DNA from: Nostoc sp. PCC 7120 = FACHB-418
GTDB lineage: Bacteria > Cyanobacteriota > Cyanobacteriia > Cyanobacteriales > Nostocaceae
Length of the DNA: 32,000 nt
Reading direction: 5' to 3'
Assembly: GCF_000009705.1 (NCBI RefSeq)
Contig: NC_003272.1
Coordinates: 1,050,001-1,082,000, forward strand
Shown: positions 1,603 through 31,920 of the stretch, one piece after another
Position numbering within the stretch: the stretch's first letter is position 1
Layout of the letters: each line of letters starts with the position of its first letter
Notes under the pieces: model-generated
Told to the model about the DNA's origin: nothing
What the model saw: only the letters and a program-made list of their open reading frames with translations
The model's database searches: none
Made by a program: the position numbers and the translations under genes

Positions 1603-1772
1603 AGTATTGAATTAGTTTGGTGTAGATAATTGACTTTAGGTATAAGTAAAGTAAATATTATATTTTTGATGGGCATTGCCCATCATACAAATGCTTAGAT
1701 TTTTGAAAAATCAACTCAGATTTCTATATAAAGTAAAGAAAAAGCTTTTGTCTTAGTTTGGGGTATATTTTT

Positions 1773-2651: not shown

Positions 2652-2656
2652 ATTTT

Positions 2657-2684
2657 TGACTGATGACTGATGACTTTTGACTAT
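2657..2684. repeat. STRR heptamer array (TGACTGA type) in the pstC-pstA junction
   Basis: TGACTGA TGACTGA TGACTTT TGACTAT fills essentially the whole 29-nt spacer and runs into the pstC stop codon. Confidence 0.8.
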
Positions 2685-3712
2685 TTATTTTTGCTACCAA
2701 CCCACTGCACCAATAACCTAGCGCCAATATTTACAGCTAGAGTGACAGCAAACAAGACTAAACCTAAATAACATAAAGCACCAATGTGCAGTCCTGGTTG
2801 AGCTTCGGCAAATTCATTAGCTAATACTGAAGGAATTGTATAAGCTGGATCGAGCAAGGAAAGACTAATTTGCGCTGAGTTGCCAATCACCATAGTTACA
2901 GCCATTGTTTCGCCTAAAGCTCTTCCTAAGGCCAGCATGGCTGCACTGACAATTCCCGAAAATCCGGCAGGTAATAATACTCGAAAAATTGTTTCCCAAC
3001 GAGTACCACCCAAGGCCATAGAAGCACTGCGTAATTCTTTAGGAATGGCTCGCAATACATCGCGGCTAATTGCTGCCATTGTTGGCAAAATCATAATGGC
3101 TAAAATAATCCCAGCCGTTAACATATTTGTGCCAACTGGGAATTCGGAATTAAATAATGGTATCCATTTAAAATTATTGGCTAACCACTGTTGTACAGGT
3201 TCTAAAACTGGAATAAAAACAAAAATTCCCCACAAACCAATAATGACGCTGGGGATAGCAGCAATTAACTCTACAACAAAAGCTAAGGTTGTTTGTATCG
3301 ATGGTGGTAGGAAGTTTTCACTAGTAACTAAGGCAACAGCTATACTCACAGGGACTGCGAAAAAAATAGCGATCGCACTACTTACCAAAGTGCCGTAAAT
3401 ATAAGGTAATGCTCCGAAAATCTCATTAGCTGTGTCCCAATCTTGACCCCAGAGAAAACCAATCCCAAAGTTATCAATGGCTGGTTTAGCTTCGAGGAAG
3501 ATAATCCAACTCATCATGAATAATACAGCAACGGCGATCGTGGCAAAGATATATACTAACCATGTGAATCCTTTGTCTAACCAAAAATTTGTGCCATCAT
3601 TAGCTGTTAATCCGAGATTTTCATTATTAGATGGAGCTAAATTTGTCATGTAAATTACGGAATTTATACTAATCAATATCTTGGGACTCATGAGGGTGGA
3701 CATATAGCCCAC
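2681..3712 (-). CDS. pstC: Phosphate ABC transporter permease PstC
   Basis: Polytopic permease with an EAA-type loop (SASMALGGTRWETIFRVLLP), directly downstream of pstS. The ORF-track start at 3712 is a GTG. ATG alternatives lie at 3703 and 3649 (MTNLAPS...), so the 5' end is uncertain. Confidence 0.88.
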   Translation of the reverse strand: MGYMSTLMSPKILISINSVIYMTNLAPSNNENLGLTANDGTNFWLDKGFTWLVYIFATIAVAVLFMMSWIIFLEAKPAIDNFGIGFLWGQDWDTANEIFGALPYIYGTLVSSAIAIFFAVPVSIAVALVTSENFLPPSIQTTLAFVVELIAAIPSVIIGLWGIFVFIPVLEPVQQWLANNFKWIPLFNSEFPVGTNMLTAGIILAIMILPTMAAISRDVLRAIPKELRSASMALGGTRWETIFRVLLPAGFSGIVSAAMLALGRALGETMAVTMVIGNSAQISLSLLDPAYTIPSVLANEFAEAQPGLHIGALCYLGLVLFAVTLAVNIGARLLVQWVGSKNK

Positions 3713-3741
3713 CCAACTTAGAAAAACATCAAAATTTCTGA

Positions 3742-4785
3742 CTATGGTTTGACGTTGCTATTGACTGTTTGCAACACACGATTAGCCACAGCATCAGGAA
3801 TTCTGGTGTAATTAAGGTCATCGTTAAATTGTTGACCCTCTTTTAAAACCCAGTTGATCCACTTTTTGATAGCTTGAGATTTAGCAGCATCAGCATACTG
3901 TCTATAAACCATCATCCAGGTGAGTCCCACAATGGGATATCCTTGTCCTGGGTCTCCTACAAAAACGCGGAAATTGTCTGGGAAACTGACAGCTGATAAA
4001 GCAGCGTTAGCAGATTGGAGAGAAGGCGCTACAAATTCTCCTCTTCTGTTTTGAATCTGGGCTGATCTAAGTCTATTTTGGGTAGCATAGGCATATTCTA
4101 CGTAGCCAATAGAGCCAGGAGTCCGGGCTATTAAAGCCGCTACACCAGGGTTTCCTCTACCTCTGAGGACGTTTGGTAAAGTCCATTTGGGTGCTGTGTT
4201 AGCACCAACTCTGCCTTTAAAATAGGGACTGATAGAACTCAGGTGGTTTGTGAAAATGAAGGTTGTACCACTACTATCCGCACGCACAGCGAATCTAATA
4301 GGCTGGTTTGGCAGATTTACACCAGGATTATCAGCTCTAATTTTGGCATCGTTCCAGTTCGTAATTTGACCAGAAAAAATTGCTGGTAATGTTGCACGGG
4401 ATAATCTGAGATTATTGACACCCGGAACATTATAAACAACGGAAACAGCCCCACCTGCGGTTGGCACTAGGATGACACCATTTTTGACTTTAGCAATTTC
4501 AGCATCCGTCATCGCAGCATCACTACCACCAAAGTCAACAGTTCCAGCAATTGTTTGCCGAATACCACCACCACTACCAATTGCTTGGTAGTTAATTCTC
4601 AGTTCTGGATGCTTCTTTCTAACTTCACGAGCATACCGTTCGTATAGTGGAGCAGGGAAAGTAGCTCCTGCTCCGTTGAGAGTTTGAGCTTGAGCTATCG
4701 CTGTAAAAATAGGAGTAACAACAACAGCAGATGTTACCACAGCAGTAGTAAATACACGCTGTAAAACGGTGGTGGAAAAATTCAT
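3742..4785 (-). CDS. pstS: Periplasmic phosphate-binding protein PstS
   Basis: N-terminal signal peptide (…TAIAQAQT) followed by PstS-type motifs (GAGATFPAPLYERY, GSGGGI, SSGTT). First gene of the operon. Confidence 0.95.
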   Translation of the reverse strand: MNFSTTVLQRVFTTAVVTSAVVVTPIFTAIAQAQTLNGAGATFPAPLYERYAREVRKKHPELRINYQAIGSGGGIRQTIAGTVDFGGSDAAMTDAEIAKVKNGVILVPTAGGAVSVVYNVPGVNNLRLSRATLPAIFSGQITNWNDAKIRADNPGVNLPNQPIRFAVRADSSGTTFIFTNHLSSISPYFKGRVGANTAPKWTLPNVLRGRGNPGVAALIARTPGSIGYVEYAYATQNRLRSAQIQNRRGEFVAPSLQSANAALSAVSFPDNFRVFVGDPGQGYPIVGLTWMMVYRQYADAAKSQAIKKWINWVLKEGQQFNDDLNYTRIPDAVANRVLQTVNSNVKP

Positions 4786-7870: not shown

Positions 7871-8884
7871 TTATCCTGTATAGCCACGATTTCTCATTTC
7901 CCAGGTTCTTGCAGAGATGAACTTTTTGACAAACAAAACAGTACAAGCAATTCGTTCGGTCTGGCGAAAGCCCAAAATATCTTGTAACAACCGATAAAAT
8001 CTTCTTTTACTATTAGCTTTAAACTCTGGAAACATCACCAAAGACTCTTCTAAGAACATTAAGTATTGCTTATAGTCAAAGAACAAAGCTTCTCTAGCTA
8101 AATCAAAATATGACTTTGCTAAAGCATGACGATACTTCATAGAAAGTTGGTTTTTCTGTAATAATTGCTGTTCAGCTTTCTTTAATACTAGATGATGGCT
8201 TTTTAACCAACGAGCTTTAGAAGAGGTAGAAACTGTGACAGAACCATATCGCCTGTATACAGCGTAGCAACCTGGTTGATAAGCAACTTTAGCTCCATTC
8301 ATGACCACAGACAGAAAAAAATCTCTATCTTGCGCGGCAGGTAAAGTTTCATCCCATCTATCACTATTTTCTACTACACTTCGTTTATACATTAAAGCAG
8401 CTAAAGCAACCCACCAATTAGCGAGTAAAGCCGCTAAAATATCTGCTTGCACCCCAGAAATTTCTATCTTATCTAGAAAACTGGAATCGTCAGGTAAATG
8501 GCGCTGATGTCTCCAATCACCATAAACAACATCTGCACCAGTTGTTTCGAGAAAATTAACTTGTTTTTCTATCTTTTCAGGTAAAATATAATCATCTGCA
8601 TCCAAGTATTGAATATATTCTCCCTGAGACAGTTCAAAACCACGATTCCTAGCATGATTTCCTCCCTGTTGGGGGTAACTCCGCCAAATAATTTCGTTTC
8701 CAAAAGTTTTGATGATTTCTAGAGAATTATCTGTAGAACCATCATCAATGACAATTATTTCAACATCAGCATAGGTTTGTGTTAAGCAACTTTCAATTGC
8801 TTCTCTTATCCATTTTTCAGCATTAAAACAAGGTATAATTACCGAAACTTTTTTGGGCATATATACTAATCCTATATAGGACAC
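7871..8884 (-). CDS. Glycosyltransferase family 2
   Basis: GT-A signature VSVIIPCFNAEKWI, DDGSTD and DxD (LDADD). The track start at 8884 is GTG. The ATG at 8860 (MPKKVSVII...) is the more likely start. Confidence 0.9.
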   Translation of the reverse strand: MSYIGLVYMPKKVSVIIPCFNAEKWIREAIESCLTQTYADVEIIVIDDGSTDNSLEIIKTFGNEIIWRSYPQQGGNHARNRGFELSQGEYIQYLDADDYILPEKIEKQVNFLETTGADVVYGDWRHQRHLPDDSSFLDKIEISGVQADILAALLANWWVALAALMYKRSVVENSDRWDETLPAAQDRDFFLSVVMNGAKVAYQPGCYAVYRRYGSVTVSTSSKARWLKSHHLVLKKAEQQLLQKNQLSMKYRHALAKSYFDLAREALFFDYKQYLMFLEESLVMFPEFKANSKRRFYRLLQDILGFRQTERIACTVLFVKKFISARTWEMRNRGYTG

Positions 8885-8946
8885 AATAGCGGTACATAAA
8901 TGCCTTGGTTAAAGCCAATATTTTCTCAATGACTAACTCAAGTTAA

Positions 8947-9852
8947 TTAATGTTTTAATTTATAACTACGAATTACAAATTTTAGTCTCGATTGATAAAC
9001 TCTAGTGACAACGCGAGGCGCTATTTGCAGAGGATCTAGTTGCATTGACCAAAATAAATTGTAAAAAGCTTCACGTTTTAGACCAATTTCATAACATTTG
9101 TTAGCGTGTTCATAGACCAACTTAGCAAACATTTGTGGATGGGCTTGGAAAAGAGATTTATGTTTATGCACTAGCCGTAAAAAGCTTTCCTGGCGAAGCA
9201 TAGGATTACGTGAAACTCTTTGTCCTCCGTGGTTATATAACTGGTAGGTAATGATGGGTAGACCGATAATTGAGCAAGCGGGGTTGAGTCGTAAAAAGAG
9301 TTCTGAGTGAACGCGCGATCGCATTTCCTCATCCCAACCACCGATTTTTTGCAGCACTTCACGCTCAACCACTAGGGTTTGCTTAGTATTGTAAGATTGA
9401 TCGGGTTCGATTTCTTCGAGAAAGAAATGGACACCACGGGGTCGGAGTGGTGGCGGTAAACGTTGACCAAGGACTTTTCCTTGAGCGTTGACTTCTTCTA
9501 AACCCGATATCACCGCTACAGGTGCGGGTAAGGATGTTTGCGATAATGCCTCTAATGATACCTCTGCCATCTGGGGAAGTAGGCGATCGTCATCATCTAA
9601 AAAGGCTACCCATCGACCAAGAGCTGCTTCTAGTCCGACGTTACGCGCTCCTGCACCACCATGAGACTGCAATAAACGAATCAATCGCAACCGGGGATGA
9701 CTAGGTAAGTCTATCGGCTGTGTAGACGCATCATCAACTACAATCACTTCCAAATCCTCCATAGTTTGCTCAAGCGCACTTTGAACAGCATGAGTCACTA
9801 AATGAGGTCGGTTATGAGTGGGAATGATAATGCTGAGTAGGGGATTGCTCAT
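8947..9852 (-). CDS. Glycosyltransferase family 2
   Basis: LSIIIPTHNRP, VVDDAST and FLDDDD motifs of GT-A fold family 2 enzymes. Confidence 0.9.
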   Translation of the reverse strand: MSNPLLSIIIPTHNRPHLVTHAVQSALEQTMEDLEVIVVDDASTQPIDLPSHPRLRLIRLLQSHGGAGARNVGLEAALGRWVAFLDDDDRLLPQMAEVSLEALSQTSLPAPVAVISGLEEVNAQGKVLGQRLPPPLRPRGVHFFLEEIEPDQSYNTKQTLVVEREVLQKIGGWDEEMRSRVHSELFLRLNPACSIIGLPIITYQLYNHGGQRVSRNPMLRQESFLRLVHKHKSLFQAHPQMFAKLVYEHANKCYEIGLKREAFYNLFWSMQLDPLQIAPRVVTRVYQSRLKFVIRSYKLKH

Positions 9853-9867
9853 TTTTCATGTTTTAAT

Positions 9868-11148
9868 TTATTGATTGATGACTTGCCATGTACGTGGTTG
9901 GTAAAATAAACATCTACTGATAGTTTTGTTACTCTTCACAGTAAATCTAAAAGATTCAACAATATCAAAAGACTCTACACCTCGTCTGATATATATTTTT
10001 GCACTGTAGACACCAGGAACAAAGGAGCAGTATGGCATATACATTTGGATTTCTGATGTTCCTGGGAGGATTGTTAAATCTTGGCGATCGCTATGAGAGG
10101 TTATGTATTGAACCAGCCCATTTTCTCCTGACAAAGCCGTTACTAGTATACCTAAGTTTGCTTGCTCGATTTTTTGGTAAGACTTGCATTCTACACACAA
10201 ATAAGCAGATTCACCGGAAAAGGGCGCTTCTAATAAATTACCCTGTTCATCCCTAAAAAAGACAGCAGTAATACTTAAACCTAGACTCTTTGCTTGTGGC
10301 TTTTCAGGTAAAATCATTTTTCCTAACGCACTTTCAGTTCCACTTAAACACAGGTCTTCTTCATATTTACGAATTACGGCTTCCGTCTCACCAGATGTAA
10401 TCAATTGACCTTTTGATAAATAAATTGATGAATCACAAACATTGAGGATACTATGGGAGTTATGAGAAACTAATATAAAAGCTGTGCCATTTTCCCGCAA
10501 TTGTGCTAACTTACGATGACATTTAATTTTAAATTTGGTATCTCCCACTGCGAGAACTTCGTCAATTAATAAAATATCTGGTTCTACATGAACTGCACAA
10601 GCAAATCCTAATCTAGCAGCCATCCCAGAGCTATAGGTTTGTACAGGTGCATCAATAGCATCCCCAATCTCAGAAAAATCTATTACCTCTTGAAATCTTT
10701 CGGCAATTTTTTTAGTAGATAGACCCAGAATTGCCATATTTGCATAAATATTTTCTCGCCCTGTCAAAATAGGATTAAATCCTGCTCCCAAGGCGATTAG
10801 TGGAGCGACTCTACCTCTCACTTTCACGGAACCAGTGTCAGGTTTAATTAGACCACTAATGATCCGTAGGAGTGTACTTTTACCAGCACCATTTGAGCCG
10901 ACTAAACCTAATGCTTCTCCCCGTCGTAACTGAAAGCTGACATCTTTGAGCGCCCAAAACTCTTTTCGACGCAACGTATCACTGTTTCTATTACCTCCGG
11001 ATAATTCGGCGGTAATATCTTGAAGACCATATAATAAGGATTTTTTTAAGTCTCTACAGAATTTTTTAGAAACATTATCAACTGAAATTAATAAATCAGT
11101 ATCTTGAGAATTTACGTAATTTTTCGGCTCTATTAACTTAATCATCAT
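9868..11148 (-). CDS. wzt: Polysaccharide/O-antigen ABC exporter ATP-binding protein (Wzt-type) with C-terminal extension
   Basis: Walker A GSNGAGKST, signature YSSGMAARLGFA and Walker B LLIDEVLAVGD. About 150 extra C-terminal residues resemble the Wzt glycan-binding beta-sandwich domain. The start overlaps the wzm stop by 1 nt. Confidence 0.9.
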   Translation of the reverse strand: MMIKLIEPKNYVNSQDTDLLISVDNVSKKFCRDLKKSLLYGLQDITAELSGGNRNSDTLRRKEFWALKDVSFQLRRGEALGLVGSNGAGKSTLLRIISGLIKPDTGSVKVRGRVAPLIALGAGFNPILTGRENIYANMAILGLSTKKIAERFQEVIDFSEIGDAIDAPVQTYSSGMAARLGFACAVHVEPDILLIDEVLAVGDTKFKIKCHRKLAQLRENGTAFILVSHNSHSILNVCDSSIYLSKGQLITSGETEAVIRKYEEDLCLSGTESALGKMILPEKPQAKSLGLSITAVFFRDEQGNLLEAPFSGESAYLCVECKSYQKIEQANLGILVTALSGENGLVQYITSHSDRQDLTILPGTSEIQMYMPYCSFVPGVYSAKIYIRRGVESFDIVESFRFTVKSNKTISRCLFYQPRTWQVINQ

Positions 11149-11993
11149 TAAGAACTAACTCTCTCAACCACAAAAGGCATAGCTAAACGAAATCCAACCC
11201 AAGTTATGAATAATGCCACAAGAGTGATTGCACTCACCACCCAAAAGCCATGAGGATGGGATACTACTCCTGTTGTAGCTAATTCTCTGATTGTCACTAA
11301 TAAAGGAGTGACCGGGTTGAAATTAACCAACCACCCAAAGATTCCCGCTTTAGGAACTGGATAAATTACAGGAGTGAGGAACAGCCAAAACCCCGTAACA
11401 AGGGATAGTGCTTTGGACACATCTTGATAGAGTACTCCTAATGGGGCTAATAAAATACCAATAAATGTTCCCAACAAAATTAAGTGAATTAGTGGAACTG
11501 GAGTTAAAATCACAGTCCAATTGGTGGGAATGCGAAACCAGATAAACAATCCCACAATTAAAATTAGCTTGATGGCAAAGTTAAAAAATACTTCGCCTAC
11601 CTTTGCTAAAATCAGTGCTTCTCGTGGAAAGTTAACTCTGGCTAACATGGGTCTGGCTGCTGATACTGCTTGTACAGGCCCGTTTAAAGCTTCAACAAAT
11701 GTCTGCCACAATGCAGTGCTGAACATGACATAAGCTGGGTAAGGTAAATCCGTGACACCAATATTAATTACTTTGGCTTCATTAGCTAGGGTAAAACTAG
11801 TAGCCATAACAATTGGTGGTAAGAAAGCCCAAGCAATTCCTAAAAACGATTGGCGATATTGAGCGCTGATATCCCTGACCATCAATCGCCAAGCTAGTTC
11901 ACGAGAAGCTAGCAAGTCTCGCCACATGAGTTTGAACAATTGTATCGGATGCCTAAGCATACTCTCAGGCTGATAAACTATCTCAGGCAGCAT
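11148..11993 (-). CDS. wzm: ABC-2 type polysaccharide exporter permease (Wzm-type)
   Basis: Six-TM-like hydrophobic profile and an ABC-2 family N-terminus (LWRDLLASRELAWRLMVRDISAQYRQSFLGIAW). Translationally coupled to the ATPase gene. Confidence 0.9.
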   Translation of the reverse strand: MLPEIVYQPESMLRHPIQLFKLMWRDLLASRELAWRLMVRDISAQYRQSFLGIAWAFLPPIVMATSFTLANEAKVINIGVTDLPYPAYVMFSTALWQTFVEALNGPVQAVSAARPMLARVNFPREALILAKVGEVFFNFAIKLILIVGLFIWFRIPTNWTVILTPVPLIHLILLGTFIGILLAPLGVLYQDVSKALSLVTGFWLFLTPVIYPVPKAGIFGWLVNFNPVTPLLVTIRELATTGVVSHPHGFWVVSAITLVALFITWVGFRLAMPFVVERVSS

Positions 11994-20497: not shown

Positions 20498-23400
20498 TTA
20501 AGCGTTACCGTGACTGACTAACTTTTCCCCTTTCAACATCCGCACTGCGGCTTCTAGTAAAGCCTCTTCTAGGTAAGGTTTGGTGAAGTATCCACTAGCA
20601 CCGAGTTGAATTGCCATTTGTCTGTGTTTATCTGCACCTCTTGAGGTGAGCATAGCAATGGGTAAATGGTTAAGGGTGGAGTCTTTTTGAATACGTGAGA
20701 GCAACTCTAGACCGTCGCAACGAGGCATTTCAATATCGCAGAAGACGATATCACAAGGTAGACCAGAACGCAGCTTGTCCCAGGCTTCCTGACCATCACG
20801 AGCTTGTTCAACGCGATAACCCGCTTTATTAAAGGTGAGGGATAGCAATTCTCGGACGGTGATGGAGTCATCAACAATCAGCACAGTCGGATCAATCTTC
20901 ACAGCCGGAACTTCGATCGCAATTGGTGGTGTCTGTTGCCAAGGTGCGCCACCAGCGTGTTTAGACATTCTTCCTTGGAAGATATCGATAATTTCCAGTA
21001 CATCAGCAATGGGCATAATGCGACCATCACCCAAAACTGTAGCCCCTGCTACACCTATTGGCTTAGGTGCTGGGCCTTCAAATTGTTTAATAACAATTTC
21101 TTGCTCACTCAATACTTGGTCAATCTGGAGAGCGATTAAAGTATTACCCGATCGCACGACGACGACAGAAATCATATCATCATCCCTGGTTCCTCCGTAG
21201 ACGTTACCGCGACCGAGTTGGCGATTGAAAGTTAACAGGTCTTTCAACGGTCGGAAGGGTAAGACTGTATCCCGCCAAGAAATGAATGATTGTCCATCAG
21301 GATTATGTTGGACGTTTTTGCTTGGTATATCTAAGGTATCTTCCACACCATCCATCGAGAAGGCGATCCGTGCTTTATCGGATACACAGCACAGAGCCTT
21401 ACAAATACTCAAGGTTAATGGTAGACGAATTGTGAAGGTGGTTCCTTTGCCAACAGTAGAATCTGTATTTACCGCCCCGCGAATTTCGCTAATTTCGGAA
21501 CGCACCACATCCATTCCCACACCACGACCAGCAATTTCATCAGCTTCATCTTTGGTACTAAAACCAGACTGGAACAGTAGGTCATAAATTTCCAGGCGGG
21601 AAATAGTTCTAGCCTGTTCTAGTGTCATGATTCCCAACTTCACTGCTTTGGCCTTGATCCGTTCTGGATCAATTCCTGCGCCGTCATCCCCTACAGAAAT
21701 TACAGTTTGGTTTCCTTGGTGAAAGGCGCGGATGGTAATAGTTCCCACGGGTGGTTTACCTGCGGCTTCCCTGATTTCCGGGGTTTCTATACCATGAGCG
21801 ATCGCATTGTTGAGCATATGGGTCAGTGGGTCATTGAGATGATCCAAAATCATCTTGTCAATGAGGGTATCGCCACCTTCAATCAATAATTCCACCTGTT
21901 TACCAAACTTGATCGCATTGTCGCGCACTCCTCGCCGCAAACGGTCAATTGTCTGAGAAAATGGCACCATCCGGGCGCGTGTCAGCCCTTCTTGCAGTTG
22001 AGTTGTAACTTGGCGGAATTGTCTGGCTACTCGTTCGGTTTCTTCGGTGACGAAATCAATGTCACTCGCTGACTCCCTCACCCTGACAATCAATTCAATC
22101 ATTTCCTGAGACAGTGTGTGGAAGGGAGTAAAGCGATCCATTTCTAATTCACTAAAACCGCGATCGCTATTTGCATCCGGTACTTCGTAGACAGGCTCTC
22201 TAGTTTTGCGACTAGCTAATAAAGATGCTTCTAAAAGCGATCGCTCATACAACTCCTGCATCCTTGCACCTACGTCTGAGAGCTGTTGCACCTGGACTAG
22301 CAAGTTATCTAATGATTGTCTCAGTCGTTCATGATCCTGCTCTAAGGTGTTGCGATTGACTACTAATTCACCGACCAAATTGCTCATTTCATCCAACTGC
22401 TTGACCGGCACTTTCATCGTTTCTTCAAATCTCGCCGTCCGTCGATTAGAAGTACGCGGAGTTTTGCCTACTGTTGGTTTGACTGGTGATGAGTGGGAGA
22501 TAGTTTGGTCTGCTTCTGCTAACAGTTTCTCCAGATCACTAAATTCATCTCCTAATGGCGCTGGTGTTACAGAAACAGGAGGAGGTGTTTTGATGATTTT
22601 AGCTACAGCAGGTGGTTCATCCAGTACTGTTTCCGGACTGTCTTCACCCAGAAGTGCTTCTAAAGCTGCAAAATCATCTCCTGCTATGGAGTCGTTATCA
22701 GCACTGGATGTAGCTTCTTCTATTTCTAACAATGCTTCTAAATCAGCAAAATCATCTTGAATATAAGTATCTGACTTGACTGATTCTGGGATATCTACTT
22801 CAGTAGAAGCCACATTTTCCACTTCAAACTCGGCTACGTCCTTCGTGGCTGGAGTTATATCTACTAAAAGCCCTGATGAATCTGCAATGTCTTCTGGATT
22901 TTCATCATTGGTCAGAGCTAGCTCCAATTCGCTAGATTCTGAAGTAGATAAAGTAATATCCTCAACCGGAATATCTGTGAAGTTGTGAGTTTCCGCGATT
23001 AACTCATCTAAGGTTAATTCCGATAAATCATCATCTAACTCCAGTTCACTAGTTTCTGCAACTGTTTCTAAACGAGAGGAATCATCAGTCTCATCAAAAG
23101 TGATATCTGTCAAATCACTAGTTGCGGCTGATAAATCATCACCTAACTCCAGTTCACTAGTTTCTGCAACTATTTCTAAACGAGAGGAATCATCAGTCTC
23201 ATCAAAAGTGATATCTGTCAAATCACTAGTTGCGGCTGATAAATCATCACCTAACTCCAGTTCACTAGTTTCTGCAACTGTTTCTAAACGAGAGGAATCA
23301 TCAGGCTCATCAAAAGTGATATCTGTCAAATCACTAGTTAAGGCTGATAAATCATCATCTAAATCCAGTTCACTAGTTTCTGCAACTGTTTCTAAACGAG

Positions 23401-26400
23401 AGGAATCATCAGTCTCATCAAAAGTGATATCTGTCAAATCACTAGTTAAGACTGATAAATCATCATCTAAATCCAGTTCACTAGTTTCTGCAACTGTTTC
23501 TAAACGAGAGGAATCATCAGGCTCATCAAAAGTGATATCTGTCAAATCACTAGTTAAGGCTGATAAATCATCATCTAAATCCAGTTCACTAGTTTCTGCA
23601 ACTGTTTCTAAACGAGAGGAATCATCAGGCTCATCAAAAGTGATATCTGTCAAATCACTAGTTAAGGCTGATAAATCATCACCTAACTCCAGTTCATTAG
23701 TTTCTGCAACTGTTTCTAAACGAGAGGAATCATCAGTCTCATCAAAAGTGATATCTGTCAAATCACTAGTTGCGGCTGATAAATCATCACCTAACTCCAG
23801 TTCACTAGTTTCTGCAACTGTTTCTAAACGAGAGGAATCATCAGTCTCATCAAAAGTGATATCTGTCAAATCACTAGTTAAGGCTGATAAATCATCATCT
23901 AAATCCAGTTCATTAGTTTCTGCAACTGCTGGTGCTGAAAAATCAATACCTGTTTCTAAACCAGAGGAATCGTTTGTTTTTTCAACTGATTGCTGTACAT
24001 CTAAAACGCTTGCAGTTGTGAATAAATCATTATTATCTGAAGTTTCTCTACTTTCTATAACCAGAGAATGGTTATTCTCATTTATTTCACTAAATAAATC
24101 AACTTCCGATTCGTCAACAGGAGATAATTCTTGAATTTGGGTGGTAAATTCGGGGATAAAATCTAAAACTTCTGGTTGTTGTGAAAAATCATGAATTTCT
24201 GGTGAGGAAACTTCACTACTTTCTCTTAAGAATTGGATGTCATCACTAATAATATTAATCCCATGAGTATCATGCGTATTTGCGGTTAATTCCTCAAATA
24301 AATCATCACCTGTATCTGATGCAAATAGCAAATCTAACTGCTGCTCGTCCTGCAAGAAAGTGATATTTAAATCATCTGGATCTAAACTTTCATTCAATGG
24401 TGATGTAAATTGTCGGTTTTCAACAAAAATATCTCCAGAAGCCGCAGCCTCAAACAAACTCTCTTCTAAAGCCTGAGCTATATCTTCCTCTATTGCAGAC
24501 TCTAATATTTGCTCCGGTTCTACTTCAGTTTCCGAGTTCCATAAATCCGCTAAGTTATCTACTGTTGGTGCAAATTCTAATGTTGTTGCTGGTGGTAAAT
24601 CAAATAAATCACTAATTTCTGATTTATCGGTTGATAATTCCGTATTTTCTTCTAAATCATTAAATAAGTTATTTAATGATAAATCTTCTGACAATGTTAT
24701 TAGCTGCGGCTCGGAATTAGTAGGTAGCTTAGTGTCTTCTAAACCCACCACATTTATATCTGTATCTAAAAACAAATCATCAAAATTACTTGAAACTTTT
24801 GTCTGCTCTAATTCATTGCCAGCCTGTATTTTATCATTGATCTTCAATGCCAATAAATCGTCTATGACATCATTGGAATCTGGTAACTGGTTAGTATTAT
24901 CTCTAGCTTCTTGTATTATTTCACCGGCAGTAACTGGGGCTTTAAATAAATCAAGTGATTCTAAATTATTTTTTTCTAAGAAGTTTTCCCCAAACAATAA
25001 GCTTAAGTCTTCTGTATTATTTATAGTGTTCTCAGTCTCTTCTTTATCTTCTTCCAGTGATAGAAAATCGGCGATATCACTATCAACTTCTTCACCTGTA
25101 CTTTCGCTGGCATCCACACCTAAATTACTAGTATTGTTAATATCAATAATTTCTTCTTGTTGCCATGTTTCATCGAATTCTGGTGTCTCACCCTCAAACA
25201 AGTCAGCAAGAGTATTTAACTCAGCTAATCCTACTTCTGGCCCGTGGGTGTGAGTTTTGTTAGTAGTATAGGTTGTTTGGTCGTGATGATCAAATGGAAT
25301 ATCCTTGTGTGCAATATTTTCTGCTATTACACTTTGCGGCGCAAGTTGCTCAGAGATTTCGGTGAGACTAGTTACACTGTCTTTTGGTGACTCAATTAAA
25401 GGCGCCCTAATTTCCTTATTAGTAATTGTAGGTTCAGGTGTGGGGGTTATTGGTGTTATGAATGATTGACTAATAGCAGTGGGAACATCACCAAGTAAAT
25501 TTTGTGCTACTTCTAACAAGGGCATTTCTGGAAAACCCCAGAGTGCTTCTAGTCGGTGACTAATTGTGATCTCAGATTCCCTACTTCGCAGAACTAATTC
25601 TTGAGCCTGTTTAATTTCTGTAATGACAATTTTAGCTAAAGTCAGATAAGTATTTTCTTGATTAGCGATCGCATTAGCTGCGGCTTTGCATAAATTACAC
25701 CAGTTAGGCAAATTCCACGTTTTTCCCAGTTTGACTAGCTGATTGCAGCAGTCCTGTAACTTCTGCCGAGATGCTGATGTTGCTGGTTGCTTAAATATTT
25801 GCAACATCTCCCTGAGTGTTTGTAAAACCTGGGATTGAAACTCACTCCACTGATCGCTATCTGTAGCAACAACGGGAGAATAGGTTGGTAAAACTGGAGA
25901 GGTTTTGGGGGTTACTTCTGCTGGAGTTGCAACATCTTGGCCAAAGAATATTCCTGTGAATGTAACCACACTATCTGCTGTGTTTGGCTTACTTACTGTA
26001 TGGTCACCAATTTCAGCAGTGCCACCTTTTTGTACCAGTTGTTCCAAATGCTCATGTAGCCATTGAAAAACTGGCTCAGTTTCCGACATCAAAGTATTAG
26101 CAACTTCTTCTGATAAACCAAACGGCCCACTTAGCTGTTCTAATAGCGCTTTCAGGGTATCAGACACACCAAGAAATAACGACTCTAGTTTTTGGTCAAC
26201 CTGAATTGGATTGTCTTTAAGAATTTTGAAACAATCTTCTAAACGATGGGAAGTGTGCTGAATGCTAGTTAAACCAAGCATTGCTGCTCCCCCTTTAATG
26301 GAGTGAGCCGCCCGGAAAACTTCGTTGATCATTTCCGGGTCGTTTAAGGTACTTTCAAGATTGAGCAACCCCTGTTCGATTGTATTCAGGTGGTCTCTCG

Positions 26401-26449
26401 CCTCTTCGATAAAGTAACCCAAAATCCTCTGTTGTTGTTCCGGCAGCAT
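20498..26449 (-). CDS. hmpE: Hybrid CheA-like histidine kinase of the Hmp/Pil motility chemosensory system (Hpt, ~1200-aa acidic linker, kinase core, CheW domain, REC)
   Basis: Hpt motif FRAAHSIKGGAAMLGL, N-box HMLNNAIAHGIE, G1 DDGAGID, G2 GRGVGMDVV, a CheW-like domain and a C-terminal REC (LIVDDS...CDIEMPRCDG...KP). Equivalent to Synechocystis PilL and Nostoc punctiforme HmpE. Confidence 0.95.
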   Translation of the reverse strand: MLPEQQQRILGYFIEEARDHLNTIEQGLLNLESTLNDPEMINEVFRAAHSIKGGAAMLGLTSIQHTSHRLEDCFKILKDNPIQVDQKLESLFLGVSDTLKALLEQLSGPFGLSEEVANTLMSETEPVFQWLHEHLEQLVQKGGTAEIGDHTVSKPNTADSVVTFTGIFFGQDVATPAEVTPKTSPVLPTYSPVVATDSDQWSEFQSQVLQTLREMLQIFKQPATSASRQKLQDCCNQLVKLGKTWNLPNWCNLCKAAANAIANQENTYLTLAKIVITEIKQAQELVLRSRESEITISHRLEALWGFPEMPLLEVAQNLLGDVPTAISQSFITPITPTPEPTITNKEIRAPLIESPKDSVTSLTEISEQLAPQSVIAENIAHKDIPFDHHDQTTYTTNKTHTHGPEVGLAELNTLADLFEGETPEFDETWQQEEIIDINNTSNLGVDASESTGEEVDSDIADFLSLEEDKEETENTINNTEDLSLLFGENFLEKNNLESLDLFKAPVTAGEIIQEARDNTNQLPDSNDVIDDLLALKINDKIQAGNELEQTKVSSNFDDLFLDTDINVVGLEDTKLPTNSEPQLITLSEDLSLNNLFNDLEENTELSTDKSEISDLFDLPPATTLEFAPTVDNLADLWNSETEVEPEQILESAIEEDIAQALEESLFEAAASGDIFVENRQFTSPLNESLDPDDLNITFLQDEQQLDLLFASDTGDDLFEELTANTHDTHGINIISDDIQFLRESSEVSSPEIHDFSQQPEVLDFIPEFTTQIQELSPVDESEVDLFSEINENNHSLVIESRETSDNNDLFTTASVLDVQQSVEKTNDSSGLETGIDFSAPAVAETNELDLDDDLSALTSDLTDITFDETDDSSRLETVAETSELELGDDLSAATSDLTDITFDETDDSSRLETVAETNELELGDDLSALTSDLTDITFDEPDDSSRLETVAETSELDLDDDLSALTSDLTDITFDEPDDSSRLETVAETSELDLDDDLSVLTSDLTDITFDETDDSSRLETVAETSELDLDDDLSALTSDLTDITFDEPDDSSRLETVAETSELELGDDLSAATSDLTDITFDETDDSSRLEIVAETSELELGDDLSAATSDLTDITFDETDDSSRLETVAETSELELDDDLSELTLDELIAETHNFTDIPVEDITLSTSESSELELALTNDENPEDIADSSGLLVDITPATKDVAEFEVENVASTEVDIPESVKSDTYIQDDFADLEALLEIEEATSSADNDSIAGDDFAALEALLGEDSPETVLDEPPAVAKIIKTPPPVSVTPAPLGDEFSDLEKLLAEADQTISHSSPVKPTVGKTPRTSNRRTARFEETMKVPVKQLDEMSNLVGELVVNRNTLEQDHERLRQSLDNLLVQVQQLSDVGARMQELYERSLLEASLLASRKTREPVYEVPDANSDRGFSELEMDRFTPFHTLSQEMIELIVRVRESASDIDFVTEETERVARQFRQVTTQLQEGLTRARMVPFSQTIDRLRRGVRDNAIKFGKQVELLIEGGDTLIDKMILDHLNDPLTHMLNNAIAHGIETPEIREAAGKPPVGTITIRAFHQGNQTVISVGDDGAGIDPERIKAKAVKLGIMTLEQARTISRLEIYDLLFQSGFSTKDEADEIAGRGVGMDVVRSEISEIRGAVNTDSTVGKGTTFTIRLPLTLSICKALCCVSDKARIAFSMDGVEDTLDIPSKNVQHNPDGQSFISWRDTVLPFRPLKDLLTFNRQLGRGNVYGGTRDDDMISVVVVRSGNTLIALQIDQVLSEQEIVIKQFEGPAPKPIGVAGATVLGDGRIMPIADVLEIIDIFQGRMSKHAGGAPWQQTPPIAIEVPAVKIDPTVLIVDDSITVRELLSLTFNKAGYRVEQARDGQEAWDKLRSGLPCDIVFCDIEMPRCDGLELLSRIQKDSTLNHLPIAMLTSRGADKHRQMAIQLGASGYFTKPYLEEALLEAAVRMLKGEKLVSHGNA
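23022..23929. repeat. In-frame 108-bp tandem repeat array (about 8.4 copies) inside the CheA-like gene
   Basis: The phase marker CCAGTTCA(C/T)T occurs at 23041, 23149, 23257, 23365, 23473, 23581, 23689, 23797 and 23905, an exact 108-nt spacing. Units encode DDSSRLETVAETSELELGDDLSAATSDLTDITFDET and differ at only a few positions. Confidence 0.95.
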
Positions 26450-26560: not shown

Positions 26561-29512
26561 TTACCTTGTTTCCATTGTTTCTACACGGAAACGTTCCACG
26601 GAAGAAATCAAATCGCGGGACACACCCACTAGGTTTTGCAGTGCGCCGGAAACTCTTTGTGCTTCTTGAGAAGTTTCTTGAGCTGTTAATTCCACCGATT
26701 GCATTACCTGAGCTACAGCACGGGATGTTTCCGTTTGTTCCACAGTATCGCTGGTGATTGAGCGCACCAAAATATCGATGCGATTCGCTACTTGAATAAT
26801 ATTTTCGAGCGATCGCTTGGCTTCTTCTGCCAATTTTGTGCCTTTAATTACCTGTTGTGTGCCTTCTTCCATCGCAGTCATAACTGAGCCTGTTTCGCTC
26901 TGGATTTGCATCACAATTTGCTCAATTTCTTTGAGGGATTTGGCTGATTTATCCGCTAATTGGCGAACTTCATCGGCTACGATCGCAAATCCGCGCCCGG
27001 CTTCTCCCGCCCGCGCCGCCTCAATACTGGCATTGAGTGCTAGTAAGTTAGTTCTGGAAGCAATTTGCGAAATCAAGGCGACAATCTTAGAAATTTCTTG
27101 GGAAGATTCTGCCAAGCGTTTTACCTTCCGGGTAGTTTCCGCGACAGTTTCCCGAATTTCCAAAATCCCCGCCACCGTATTTTCTACTGCTTCTCCACCC
27201 TTGAGAGCGATCGTACTAGCATCACGCGCCACTTTCTCGGCTTCTCGCGCTGCTTCCGCTACCCGTTGAATCGAGTCAGTCATCACCTGTACAGAATTTA
27301 AGGTGACTCCCAACTCTTCGGCTTGGCGCAAAGCATCACTTGATAAGGCTCTAGCAAAGGTTTCCGAATTGGTTGCACCTTTGGTTACTTCCTTAGCCGC
27401 GACTTTTACCTGCTGCACAATGTCCCGCAAGTTTTGAATTGTCAGGTTAAAGGCATCAGCGACGGCTCCAAGTACGTCGGCTGTCACTTCCGCTTGCACT
27501 GTCAAATCACCTCTAGCCGCCCCTTCCACATCATCCAGCAAGCGAATTACTTGACGTTGGAGGTTTTCTTTCGCTTCCTCTTGTTCATCGGCTTTGCGTT
27601 GGGCTTCATTGGTAGTGGTAAAAATTACCCGTGCCATTTCGTTGAAGCCGGCTGATAACTGTCCTAGTTCATCGTTGGAATATACTGTGGCTTGAACATT
27701 TAAGCTGCCTTGACGGACAGCATCAAATTGCGCTTGCAAATCCTTAGTGGTGCGGCGGACTTGTTTGATAGTGACACTCCCCATAAAGGCGGCTGCGGCA
27801 AAACCTGTCATCCCGGCTGCCAAAGACATCGCCCAACTTGTGTACCGCAATGATTCCCGTTGTTGGGGAGGAGCAATGTTAGTAGCGGTAAAGCTAACTG
27901 TTGCCACAACTAAGGCGGAGAACACACCCACAACCCCACCAACCAACCAAGGTTTTGTGTCTAGGGAAGCGTTTTCTAATGGTGCTAACCAACCTTGCTC
28001 GACATTGACATTAGCTTCTACCTTGGGGACATCTGCTTGGCTAAAGATTGGTACAGCTTCTTGGGAACCGGTGATGCTAAATAGCTCCTCATCGCGTTCT
28101 GTAGCATTATTTGCAGTTTCTGCAACTTTACCTCTTGGGATACTATTAATTTCCGTAGAACTGGAAAGCATCACATCACTAAAGCTGGAATCTGCTTCTG
28201 CCAGATCAAACCCAGGAATATTACCTAAATCATCAAATTCATCAAAATCGTCTAAAAATTCGATATTACTTTTAGAGTTTTCTTTATTGAAGATAATGCT
28301 TGTATCTTCGTCATTTGTTATACTTTCTGTTCCGAAAGCCGATTCAAATGCTTCAAAATCAAAACTCTCATCAGCATCAAAGTTATTCATCTCCTCTTTG
28401 AGCATATCTGGAGATGGTGATTTCATAGTAAAACCACTATTAACAGATGCTGGTGACTCTAATATCTCTTCTTGAGAAGCTATTTCCTGTAACCAATTAT
28501 TTGATTCAGGATGAGCAATATCACCTAGACTATCATTAGGCAAATTCTCTAGGGGCATGAAGCCATTCATGACTTCTTCTTTACCCGGTGAGAAATTTTC
28601 CGGTTCTGGCTTGCTTTTATCTATCTCTAATTCGTCTGTGGTATCTTCTTGATTGTTTTCTATTAAGAATTCAGCTACAGAAGCTTGCCCAATAAAACTG
28701 TTTGTTGTGTCGAATTCGGCAAAAGGTGAATCAATATTGCTTTGGTGATAGCCGGCGACCGAATTTAGGTCATCGGTTGGCGGTTCTGTGCCACTATCCA
28801 ATAAATTATCGGTCTGTGGTTCTTCTAGGCTCTCTTCCTGCCAGAACATCGGTAACTCTAATTCCGCTTGTTCTTGATTTGAGTCTGTCTTTTGCTCTTC
28901 TTCTCGCTCAAGGTTCAACGCAAAAGGATCATCACTAAAATCTGGTATAGACTCTATAGATTCTGGGTTTTCATTAAAAGAAATACTATCTGTAGGTGTT
29001 TCAAAAGGATTATCTAAAGATAAATCTTCTGTGTTTACTACTGATTCTTGTGTTTCTAAAGCATTTAAATCGAAGTTGTTGCTGTCAAAATCTCCAATTG
29101 AACCCAAATCTTCTAATTCTAATTCCTCTGATTCTTTAAAGGCAAATACACCCAGATCTATGGATTCATTGCTGTTAAGATTAGCAGACTGTTCAGCAAT
29201 TGATTGTTGATAATGGCTAATATTTTCCAGACCACTTTGAGCAAATCCAATAAGTTCAAAGTCATCAGTTAACTGTATGACCTGTTCATATTCTGCTGTT
29301 GCCACATCGTACTGCTGCAAAACATAGTAAATGTGACCCCGCAACAAATGAAAATTAGGGTCATCTGGTACATTCTGCACAACCTGATCAACTAAACTGG
29401 CGGCAACTTCATATTTTTGTTCCGCGTAGGCTGTACAAGCCTGCTGATACTTTTCGAGGTATTCTTCTATACTTGCTGCCATTTGCTCCCCTCCCAATTT
29501 CATCCTGCCCAC
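26561..29512 (-). CDS. hmpD: Methyl-accepting chemotaxis protein (TPR-like N-terminus, acidic region, TM hairpin, HAMP, MA domain)
   Basis: C-terminal MCP signalling domain ([31 protein letters not shown]), a HAMP region and two TM helices 16 aa apart. The track start at 29512 is GTG and overlaps cheW by 13 nt. The ATG at 29482 follows GGGAGGGGAG and is the more likely start. Confidence 0.93.
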
Positions 29513-30030
29513 CTCGCACTCCGCAAAATTGCCATCTGGTCGAGTAGTCTTAGAGATTGGTTGTTTTTAGGCTCTAATAACCACTCTCCCCGCAAAAATG
29601 GAGCCATAGTATCCGGTATGCTTGTAGGTGGCATGAGATTTTGTACATCCAGCCAGTCCATACCGCCGATTTCATCCACAGCTAAACCCACAGTTGTGTC
29701 TTGCTCCTGAACTGCAATCACCGGAATTTCTGCTCGGTCTGTGTTTAACGGAGTTGCTTCCCCTAGAAATTGACCCAAATCTGCCACCCAAATTACTCGA
29801 CCTCGTAAATTTAGAGTACCCAAAAGTAAAGGAGAAGCATTAGGAATCGGGGTAATTCTATCAGGACTTAGTTCCATCACCTCTCGGATACCAGTTGCGG
29901 GTAGTGCAAACTCCTGATGCGAGGGAATATAAAACCGTAGATGTAACTCACCTTCAGGACTTTCTACTTGTAATTCTGGGCGGAAATGATCTTGACCACC
30001 GCCATTTAAAAAGTCCGGTTTGCTGACCAT
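29500..30030 (-). CDS. hmpC: CheW-like coupling protein
   Basis: Single CheW domain (…[23 protein letters not shown]…) between the CheY and MCP genes. Equivalent to PilI. Confidence 0.92.
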
Positions 30031-30043
30031 ATTGTTTTCATCC

Positions 30044-30409
30044 TTATCCTCGCAGTAGTTGTTTGACTGTTCCCACCAATTCGGTTGGTTGAAACGGTTT
30101 TGCTATGTAAGCATCCGCACCTTGTTTCATACCCCAGTAGCGGTCAAATTCTTCTCCTTTAGAAGAACACATCACTACCGGGACATTTTGGGTTTTTGGA
30201 TCTGACTTTAATCGACGGCAAACTTCGTAGCCATTCATTTTGGGCATGACAATATCTAGGACTACGAGATCGGGAGGTTCTTCTTTGATTGCCTCTAATG
30301 CTTCTAATCCGTCAGTTGCATGGGTAACTGTTAAGCCACTAGCTTTCAGGAGGTCTGTAATCATCTCCCTCTGTGCAAGACTGTCTTCCACAATCAGAAC
30401 TGTACTCAT
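30044..30409 (-). CDS. hmpB: CheY-like single-domain response regulator
   Basis: 121-aa REC domain with VLIVEDS, phospho-acceptor context VVLDIVMPKMNG and conserved K (YIAKPF). Equivalent to PilH. Confidence 0.93.
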   Translation of the reverse strand: MSTVLIVEDSLAQREMITDLLKASGLTVTHATDGLEALEAIKEEPPDLVVLDIVMPKMNGYEVCRRLKSDPKTQNVPVVMCSSKGEEFDRYWGMKQGADAYIAKPFQPTELVGTVKQLLRG

Positions 30410-30633: not shown

Positions 30634-30693
30634 GGTAATAGATAATTACGAATGGGTAATAGGCCTATTACCTATTACCCATTACCCATTACC
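30634..30693. repeat. STRR heptamers (GGTAAT / ATTACC) in inverted orientation, overlapping the 3' end of the PatA-type RR gene
   Basis: GGTAAT-type units on the left and TTACCTA TTACCCA TTACCCA TTACCAA on the right. An 18-bp palindrome GGTAATAGG|CCTATTACC sits at 30655-30672. Confidence 0.8.
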
Positions 30694-31920
30694 AAATTCC
30701 CATCCCTTGGTGGGCGAGGATTTTAAGTATTTTTCTACAAGCATGAGTAATTCATCATCATTAAAAGGTTTTATGAGGTAATCTGTTGCCCCGGCCATCC
30801 TAGCTCTGATTTGATCTATAAATTTATCTTTACTACTCAACATAATCATCGGTATATACCGAAATACTTGAGATTGACGCAGCATGGCACAAATCTCATA
30901 ACCATTTAGTTCGGGTGAGGAAATGTCACAGAAAACTAAATTTGGTCGGAGTTGAAAAATTAGACCTAAAGCTTCTAGGGGATTAGTTAACACGATTACT
31001 TCCGGTATAGTGTAGCCCGTCGTTTCATATCCTCGCGCTTGCAGAATAGACTCTACAGTTTCACAAATACTTTTTGTATCGTCAATACAGAGGATTTTTG
31101 CTTTCTTGTGGTTCCCTGGTATGTGGATGTTGATCTGACAATTATTTGGTTCTGGATAGGTTAGTTTTAACCAACCTTGTTGTACATACGGGTAGATAAC
31201 CTTGGCAACTGTCAAAATGTCCCGGTTGAGATAACGTGCTAGTTGACGTAAAGTAGTTTTTCCATCAGCCCATTGTTCGAGTTTATTCATTGTGGCTTCT
31301 GGAAGTGATGAGTTTATGTGAACTCTTTCAGCTAATATTGGCAATTGTTCTGGAGAATGAATATAGGGATATAGCTCGTGCCATTCTTGTAATTGTTGGG
31401 TGGCTTGAGTGACTAATGGCGAAATCTCCCAGGTAGTTAATCGGGGAGCGATCGCTGTATCCTGACAAAAAATAAACCTCCCTTGGTGTAAACTCAACAA
31501 GTCAAATAATGTCTCACCAACCAAACGGTAGATAATATTTTCAGCTATTTGAGGATTAATAATATTCCGCTCTAATAACAGCCAAAGATAGTCATATTCT
31601 GAAGAATTAAGTTTACCTAAACTAGTCAGATATTGTTCGTTTAGGCCTATTTCTACGCGATAGTAACGCAAATAGCCATCAATCCGCGAAAAATTACTAT
31701 CTCCTTCTTGGCAATAAATTATTTGCCCATTCAGAAAAAATATCAGCCAATATTTTTGCTGGTAGTTCCTAAAATAATCTGCTCCCTCTGCATCTTCTTT
31801 AGCATTTTGATTACCTTTGTACAAGCTAGGTGCTTCAATCAAAAGTTGCCCAGTTCGCTGTCCCAGTTCAATCAATTGCAGGATACTGCGAATATCGATT
31901 TCATGTAAACTTCCCTGCAT
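30682..31920 (-). CDS. hmpA: PatA-type response regulator (N-terminal PATAN/DUF4388 domain + C-terminal REC)
   Basis: N-terminal MQGSLHEIDIRSILQLIELGQRTGQL is typical of the PATAN domain. C-terminal REC (ILCIDD...CDISSPELNGYE...IKPF). Equivalent to PilG. Confidence 0.9.
   Translation of the reverse strand: MQGSLHEIDIRSILQLIELGQRTGQLLIEAPSLYKGNQNAKEDAEGADYFRNYQQKYWLIFFLNGQIIYCQEGDSNFSRIDGYLRYYRVEIGLNEQYLTSLGKLNSSEYDYLWLLLERNIINPQIAENIIYRLVGETLFDLLSLHQGRFIFCQDTAIAPRLTTWEISPLVTQATQQLQEWHELYPYIHSPEQLPILAERVHINSSLPEATMNKLEQWADGKTTLRQLARYLNRDILTVAKVIYPYVQQGWLKLTYPEPNNCQINIHIPGNHKKAKILCIDDTKSICETVESILQARGYETTGYTIPEVIVLTNPLEALGLIFQLRPNLVFCDISSPELNGYEICAMLRQSQVFRYIPMIMLSSKDKFIDQIRARMAGATDYLIKPFNDDELLMLVEKYLKSSPTKGWEFGNG

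Follow-up and report, generated by a model that had tools for sequence, protein, structure and literature searches.

The hmp-type locus and its hybrid kinase

We analyzed a 32,000-nucleotide (nt) stretch of the Nostoc sp. PCC 7120 = FACHB-418 genome (contig NC_003272.1, positions 1,050,001 to 1,082,000; hereafter the window, to whose numbering all coordinates refer), focusing on a 108-bp tandem repeat array that lies inside a gene for a CheA-like kinase. Pfam domains and gene order identify this gene (20498..26449, minus strand) as a hybrid CheA kinase of the hmpE/pilL/chpA type, with a predicted product of 1983 amino acids (aa). The protein begins with an Hpt (P1) domain (PF01627, aa 9-107, E = 2.2e-18), and its C-terminal part (aa 1343-1967) contains, in that order, the P3 dimerization domain (H-kinase_dim, PF02895, aa 1343-1399), the P4 domain (HATPase_c, PF02518, aa 1540-1679), the P5 domain (CheW, PF01584, aa 1685-1822), and a receiver domain (REC, PF00072, aa 1856-1967). 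Between the Hpt and the dimerization domain lie ~1230 residues (~aa 111-1340) that are acidic and contain no Pfam domain; a CheY-binding P2 domain was not matched in aa 111-420 or in the array by Pfam, even at E-values up to 1.

Four further genes are encoded on the same strand, and hmpE is the last gene of the operon. Based on Pfam domains and synteny with the locus of Nostoc punctiforme NIES-2108, these are an hmpA-like PatA-type response regulator (DUF4388/PATAN and REC, 30682..31920, minus strand, 412 aa), an hmpB-like single-domain CheY (30044..30409, minus strand, 121 aa), an hmpC-like CheW (29500..30030, minus strand, 176 aa), and an hmpD-like methyl-accepting chemotaxis protein (MCP; TPR, HAMP, and MCPsignal domains, 26561..29512, minus strand, 983 aa). 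The sizes of the five products, from HmpA to HmpE, are 412/121/176/983/1983 aa in the window and 392/121/176/988/1999 aa in NIES-2108, and the two HmpE proteins are 55% identical over their full length (locus tags of the N. punctiforme hmp genes are given in PMC10581220). In NIES-2108, a divergent open reading frame (ORF) of 586 aa occupies the expected hmpF position, which here falls past the window end (>32000), so that the window shows hmpA-E only. Because domains, order, and sizes match the NIES-2108 locus, we assign the cluster, from sequence, to the hmpA-E / pilG-L type and the array-bearing gene to hmpE. An earlier reading of this DNA, made from its letters and translations without database searches (hereafter the sequence-only reading), had already called the gene a CheA-like motility kinase, and the Hpt, H-kinase_dim, HATPase_c, CheW, and REC domains together with the hmp-type gene order bear this out.

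HmpE of N. punctiforme (Npun_F5964), the Synechocystis tax3 kinase PilL, and ChpA of the Pseudomonas Pil-Chp system are, like the kinase described here, hybrid CheA proteins of type IV pilus chemosensory systems. They resemble it in their domain order (Hpt, long linker, P3, P4, P5, and REC) and in an operon made up of a PatA-type regulator, CheY, CheW, MCP, and kinase. ChpA extends its N-terminal half by extra Hpt-like domains, not by acidic repeats. In classical CheA proteins (E. coli, Thermotoga), the P1-P2 and P2-P3 tethers let the phosphotransfer domain reach the ATP-binding and receiver domains. Whereas these classical linkers are tens of residues long, the one found here spans about 1230 aa, is strongly acidic and repeat-bearing, and has no recognizable P2. 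The Hmp system governs HmpF localization and type IV pilus activity (PMC12288463), and in the passages of PMC8461463 and PMC12288463 that cite the relevant genetics, the requirement of HmpE for hormogonium motility or pilus function is established in N. punctiforme only. In the related Tax1 system, the PixL kinase phosphorylates PatA-type and CheY-type regulators, while its own REC acts as a sink (PMC11181946). In Synechocystis, pilL is split into two genes, as the title of a paper listed in PMC12288463 (Yoshihara et al. 2002) indicates.

Anatomy of the array and turnover of its units

Tandem Repeats Finder (TRF) reported a single array in the window, at 23022..23928 (score 1667, period 108, 8.4 copies, 96% matches, 0% indels). 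It is read from the minus strand as HmpE aa 842-1143, and its period (108 = 3 × 36) keeps it in frame within the kinase ORF. The phase marker CCAGTTCA occurs nine times, from 23041 to 23905, with each step exactly 108 nt. The consensus unit is DDSSRLETVAETSELxLxDDLSALTSDLTDITFDE[T/P], and the peptide of one unit reads ETSELDLDDDLSALTSDLTDITFDE. Such an array cannot arise by chance, and it has the features of a coding minisatellite or variable-number tandem repeat (VNTR), namely head-to-tail copies, a period that is a multiple of three, and high identity between units.

A unit table and the variant sites delimit seven full 36-aa units (23087..23842, minus strand, aa 870-1121), which are pairwise 94.4-100% identical, two of the seven being 100% identical. 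On either side of them, the unit table and a species comparison place one partial unit. The 5′ edge unit (23843..23950, minus strand, aa 834-869) keeps the last 27 unit residues, and the unit start is replaced by GIDFSAPAV, a remnant of a longer 44-aa unit type. The 3′ edge unit (22979..23086, minus strand, aa 1122-1157) is unit-like over its first ~22 residues and then gives way to unique linker (..DDLSELTLDELIAETHNF..); this border is kept in Nostoc parmelioides and A. subtropica. The sequence-only reading had described near-identical in-frame 108-bp repeats, and both the TRF call and the regular markers uphold this. Its alternative sequence blocks are likewise found at the places it named (GTTGCGGCTG / GTTAAGGCTG, CACCTAACTCC / CATCTAAATCC, and ATCAGTCTC / ATCAGGCTC). 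Its count of about eight full units plus diverged flanking copies was right about the flanking partial copies and slightly generous for the rest, as we find seven full and two partial edge units.

Variation among the full units is limited to eight nucleotide sites in seven codons, and all eight are nonsynonymous, although the absence of synonymous changes among so few events is not significant alone. In the full units, all four combinations are found for the site pairs 48/106 and 53/106, a violation of the four-gamete condition that extends to further pairs once the edge units are counted. This mosaic fits exchange between units, given correct assembly of the window.

Comparison with sister species provides a second view of unit turnover. 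Homologous arrays with the same borders as in the window are present in N. parmelioides (86% identical) and A. subtropica (75% identical); however, while the borders are conserved across species, the interior unit types differ (36, 44, or 51 aa). A. subtropica has units of 44 and 51 aa containing VIDFSDxTV, and N. parmelioides mixes 36- and 44-aa units, whereas the window array is of the 36-aa type throughout, save for the 44-type remnant at its 5′ edge. At the DNA level, units within an array are 96.8% identical in the window, 95.9% in A. subtropica, and 93.8% for the 36-aa units of N. parmelioides. Between species, window units are 84.8% identical to N. parmelioides units (maximum 89.8%) and 82.2% to A. 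subtropica units; the unique flanks are 90-92% and 80-87% identical to those of the window, respectively. Each window unit is thus closer to its neighbors than to any sister-species unit. This pattern, with greater similarity inside a genome than across genomes, indicates concerted evolution with conservative edges. Recent recombination or gene conversion, which the sequence-only reading had proposed from the mosaic of blocks, is therefore supported both by the four-gamete violations and by an identity of 96.8% within the array against a maximum of 89.8% between species.

Whole-unit differences are also seen between close relatives. Two complete Nostoc genomes (P0096 and P0117; DSM 114167 and DSM 114159; contigs of >8 Mb) differ at hmpE by 11 substitutions and one 56-aa gap that corresponds to one unit. 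Whole units also separate the members of several further pairs whose cores are 100% identical, although some of these pairs are alternative assemblies of one organism. Conversely, four independent assemblies of one lichen Nostoc all encode proteins of 1960 aa, and turnover rates are therefore not extreme. That hmpE varies in size because of repeats is already known in print: a 2021 paper notes it in one sentence, for strains that include N. variabilis-like ones with 92% average nucleotide identity to PCC 7120 (PMC8461463). Beyond that sentence, we found nothing on this array in the literature on hmpE and on the resequencing of PCC 7120 substrains. The proposal that the array is strain-variable consequently holds for the family, as seen in the published size variation and in the DSM pair with its 56-aa unit, but not for PCC 7120-type assemblies, whose differences fit short-read collapse (see below). 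The comparison of Nostocales orthologues that had been suggested as a check points the same way, in that unit sequence, type, and number all vary among relatives.

The same observations bear on whether the array could be a contingency or phase-variation locus, i.e., one where copy-number switching within a culture would yield motility or hormogonium variants. Long, nearly perfect direct repeats are recombination-prone, and closely related genomes do differ by whole units, both of which would be expected at such a locus. Classical phase variation, however, relies on units of 1-9 nt, and changes in multiples of 108 nt preserve the reading frame, as the sequence-only reading had pointed out, and hence provide no ON/OFF switch. 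The array is internal to the ORF, and a scan for a promoter-like site or terminator within it found none. In addition, the within-strain differences are explained by assembly, and the constant length of the four lichen Nostoc assemblies argues against very high rates. We thus consider phase variation highly improbable; this part of the sequence-only reading did not withstand scrutiny, as in-frame changes of 108 nt cannot switch the gene and a promoter-like site was not found in the array.

Copy number across assemblies and orthologues

Assemblies of this strain disagree on the length of the array. Five of them, including the one from which the window is taken, are identical at 833/833 N-terminal and 844/844 C-terminal flank residues, yet show 7, 5, 4, 1, and 0 full units. 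The four other versions come from the NCBI draft GCA_003990585.1 (L084 / P0001; five full units, in a different order), from MEGAHIT k127 contigs of ENA runs ERR1254308 (L083 / P0002; four full units) and ERR1254310 (L082 / P0003; one full unit), and from a Logan contig (L081 / P0004; no full unit), with HmpE lengths of 1911/1875/1767/1731 aa. Three of these four are short-read builds, and the two MEGAHIT contigs, although obtained from two runs of one ENA project, are mutually discordant.

A k-mer comparison helps to interpret these differences. Outside the array, the four other assemblies contain no k-mers that are absent from the window; inside it, no novel k-mers occur at k ≤61, and novel junction k-mers appear only at k ≥91 (≥127 for one assembly). 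Because this pattern is the signature of paths through a collapsed graph, we did not count the same-strain differences as real polymorphism: they probably represent different routes through one collapsed repeat graph, although some may be real deletions. Real substrain polymorphism was accordingly rejected as the explanation of the same-strain length variants, with both the k-mer test and the provenance of the assemblies favoring collapse. The warning in the sequence-only reading that the array is prone to assembly collapse or expansion proved apt, given five counts between identical flanks and, in Trichormus variabilis FSR, a contig that ends within the array.

The disagreement raises the question of whether the array itself, or its copy number and unit order in the window, could be an assembly artefact, in which case the apparent mosaic would come from a chimeric route across repeats that are nearly identical. 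Arguments for this are the five discordant counts, one of them with reordered units, the predominance of short-read builds among the other assemblies along with the disagreement between two runs of one project, and the confinement of novel k-mers to the array at k ≥91, just as alternative paths through one collapsed graph would give. On the other hand, the array as such is real: the unit is present in all independent assemblies, sister species carry homologous arrays with the same borders, and complete genomes on contigs of at least 5 Mb bear arrays too. Moreover, the window version is both the longest and the most internally differentiated, which collapse cannot create. An artefact is therefore somewhat unlikely, with doubt limited to the exact number and order of units. 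In practice, hmpE length in short-read Nostocales assemblies is untrustworthy, as contigs break or collapse at the array, and long reads are required before strains are compared or "mutations" are called there.

Arrays of this kind are not unique to this genome, and are in fact the rule in Nostocales hmpE. TRF detected arrays at the same relative place in 56 of 80 orthologous loci, with periods of 90-486 bp (111 of 112 TRF rows divisible by 3), spans of 227-2617 bp, and internal identities of 77-99%. Among orthologous proteins from Nostocales, 75 of 116 carry an in-frame array at the same position, made of lineage-specific units, and the array starts at a median of aa 839 (interquartile range 824-880), compared to aa 834 in the window. 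Protein length correlates with array span (r = 0.85), and the 41 of 116 orthologues without an array have a median length of 1759 aa. Across 147 more distant representatives (core 55-89% identical), the acidic linker was found in all and arrays in 27. Unit sequence can differ markedly between lineages: members of the N. punctiforme clade have units of 48-61 aa and of other sequence, in contrast to the 36-aa units found here. A search of a 5.8-billion-protein set with the array alone returned one match, a T. variabilis FSR fragment; since composition correction probably removed the others, this search is uninformative on occurrence outside hmpE.

The matched fragment (P0121) is a partial HmpE on a 1098-nt contig that ends inside the array after 2.7 units. 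Its species-specific 36-aa units directly follow ..TTQIQELSAI, and it lacks the ~70 residues that stand ahead of the array in the window. Elsewhere, a full-length homologue with 54% identity and its own 147-bp × 8 array was noted on plasmid1 of Nostoc carneum NIES-2107 (L061, 12701..13868; 554-kb record). For Nostoc calcicola FACHB-3891 (L063) and Nostoc sp. B(2019) (L040), the tblastn match extends over ~7.4 kb, compared to the usual ~6 kb, with best-segment identities of 46-50%, and in the former the tandem array is found where the reported match ends, or farther on. These long matches could reflect a partial duplication or insertion adjoining hmpE.

A probable length-tolerant acidic tether between Hpt and kinase core

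The composition of the array is highly biased, with 34% D+E, 2.5% K+R, and 27% S+T, resulting in a net charge of −0.32 per residue. Mean hydropathy (0.445) lies below the charge-hydropathy boundary (0.527), and the array is the extreme of a linker that is strongly acidic from about aa 400 to 1300. A single-sequence AlphaFold2 model of aa 800-1200, covering the whole array, has a mean predicted local distance difference test (pLDDT) score of 57, and a model of four units built with a 6-row alignment one of 45. When the array model was compared to the PDB with Foldseek, no significant fold match was obtained, only beta-helix matches (best E 0.73, TM at most 0.19). The models thus give no confident fold for the array, and composition and low AlphaFold confidence together suggest that the array and linker are probably intrinsically disordered. 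These are the disorder and structure predictions that the sequence-only reading had advised, and their outcome, below the charge-hydropathy boundary and at low confidence, fits a flexible linker.

Taken together, we favor, with a probability of roughly 0.7, a reading of the array as a coding minisatellite within a long, acidic, and probably disordered tether that joins the Hpt/P1 domain to the dimerization-catalytic core and turns over by recombination. Units of 108 bp with 94-100% identity would share ample homology on which unequal recombination, gene conversion, or replication slippage could act, and units could be gained, lost, and homogenized, in a process of concerted evolution. With a period divisible by three the frame is kept, so that any unit multiple would be tolerated, and every product would be a full-length kinase with a longer or shorter tether. 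Selection appears to keep only the frame, the acidity, and the hydrophobic positions of an acidic-amphipathic motif (..ETSELxLDDDLSALTSDLTDITF..). Copy number would then modestly change tether length, and with it how far P1 reaches, or how concentrated it is locally, with respect to the kinase core and receiver domains, and would also change the number of motif copies. By a rough polymer estimate, in which the radius of gyration Rg is about 0.25 N^0.55 nm, the 1230-aa linker would measure 12.5 nm, or 10.7 nm if the array is left out, and the effect of copy number on P1 reach is therefore presumably only modest. We infer both the recombination mechanism and any effect on signaling. Loss of the array is tolerated, as seen in the array-free 41 of 116 orthologues, and the array most likely serves as a spacer that tolerates changes in length and multiplies a conserved acidic-amphipathic motif.

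Although the gene is an interesting one, the element is of an ordinary kind, a VNTR in a probably disordered linker. It shares with other bacterial coding minisatellites and VNTRs (e.g., tandem repeats of M. tuberculosis, PMC12817950) head-to-tail in-frame units of tens of bp or more with high unit identity, concerted evolution, frequent short-read mis-assembly, and, at the level of the family, copy numbers that differ between close strains. Unlike the VNTRs of surface proteins, however, it lies in a cytoplasmic signaling kinase and is not tied to antigenic or adhesive variation. In filamentous cyanobacteria, the main chemosensory kinase of type IV pili has a conserved hot spot of in-frame repeat turnover in its Hpt-to-kinase tether. 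If copy number is neutral, this would simply be a classic example of concerted evolution within such a linker.

Motif conservation leaves room for a more specific role. In the units of three species, none of the hydrophobic positions (L, L, L, I, F, L, V, L, L) varies. The pattern xETxEL[DN]L..DD[LF] recurs in otherwise different units of many lineages, and repeat-free orthologues have single-copy ELELNLFDDL and DLSLLDELL at the same site. A regular expression for the motif gave 32 matches, compared to 5.1 ± 2.2 in shuffles, although this expression was devised only after the data had been seen and was run on sequences that are related to one another. Between the array and the dimerization domain, the same acidic linker holds three copies of a second motif, [DE][DE]F[AS]xLE[AK]LL, which resembles the unit core DDLSALTSDL: DDFADLEALL (22520..22546, aa 1302), DDFAALEALL (22649..22675, aa 1259), and DEFSDLEKLL (22727..22753, aa 1233), all on the minus strand. 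One to three copies of it occur in 121/121 close orthologues and 115/141 distant representatives, with a median distance to the C-terminus of 729 aa, and it looks like a conserved short linear motif.

From these patterns, each unit could be read as a docking motif that folds on binding, with HmpB, HmpA, the kinase's own REC, or HmpF as putative partner, and the array as a multivalent scaffold standing in for the missing P2. Consistent with this, the 1230-aa linker yielded no P2 domain, the invariant hydrophobic residues of DDLSALTSDLTDI have an L-x-x-L-x-x-x-L-x-x-I spacing that would fit one helix face, xETxEL[DN]L..DD[LF] extends across lineages and is kept as a single copy where repeats are absent, and the related [DE][DE]F[AS]xLExLL is retained one to three times in nearly all family members. 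The unit is also similar to the acidic amphipathic peptides by which FliM and CheZ bind CheY, a resemblance that we take as a lead and not as a test. If docking is true, recombination-driven changes in copy number would tune the gain of pilus or motility signaling between strains. However, more than a third of the orthologues (41/116) do without an array, and N. punctiforme-type units differ in sequence (PDDLFGSFDENPQLLFEDV). AlphaFold, moreover, gives strands instead of helices, at low confidence, and the window of conservation is short, the species compared being about 80-92% identical in flanking DNA. Overall, we regard a docking role as unlikely.

A length-tolerant spacer remains the preferred reading, yet several observations weigh against it. 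The strict conservation of hydrophobic positions goes beyond the need of a pure entropic spacer, while the exclusively nonsynonymous variant sites within the array (8/8) give no sign of purifying selection and fit relaxed constraint or small numbers. The motif counts come from a post hoc expression applied to mutually related sequences, and the 8.4 copies are those of the window as assembled and may differ from the true copy number of the strain. Disorder, for its part, is argued solely from composition and low AlphaFold confidence, and the array may have a cation-dependent folded state. In particular, the single-sequence model is a regular beta meander with two strands per unit and pLDDT of 60-72 in the array. 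We considered a folded beta-repeat domain on these grounds and found it unsupported, as pLDDT drops to 45 once an alignment is supplied and no PDB fold matches. Near-perfect repeats tend to elicit regular beta models from AlphaFold, and a sheet in which 12 of every 36 residues are acidic could be stable only with counter-ions; the predicted strands are thus likely a repeat artefact.

Two annotation candidates that overlap the array were also rejected. The array scores 73 bits against DUF5335 (PF17269), above the cut-off, but does so through four repeated matches to profile positions 26-57 of 110. This likely reflects local similarity between acidic segments and could mislead automatic annotation; DUF5335 is precomputed for longer HmpE variants of the same strain. 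On the opposite strand, a GTG-start ORF of 344 aa (23100..24134, plus strand) has no Pfam match, and is the expected stop-free by-product of a GAT/GAA-rich repeat instead of a gene.

Closer to the N-terminus of HmpE, aa ~227-305 (~25535..25770, minus strand) form a basic, Cys-containing stretch in the otherwise acidic linker. This stretch aligns weakly with the protein's own Hpt domain (aa 17-74; BLASTP E 0.047 in a single comparison), does not keep the position of the phospho-accepting His, and has no Pfam match. It may be a degenerate second Hpt-like domain; PixL has been described with two Hpt domains (PMC11181946).

The neighborhood of the locus, at 820..4785 and 7871..11993 (minus strand), is ordinary. 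It includes a phosphate-type ATP-binding cassette (ABC) transporter set, comprising a PBP_like_2 binding protein, two permeases, and an ATPase, as well as a set made up of a Wzt-type ABC exporter ATPase and two family-2 glycosyltransferases. These two sets are separated by genes for an Era-like GTPase and a LuxR-type response regulator.

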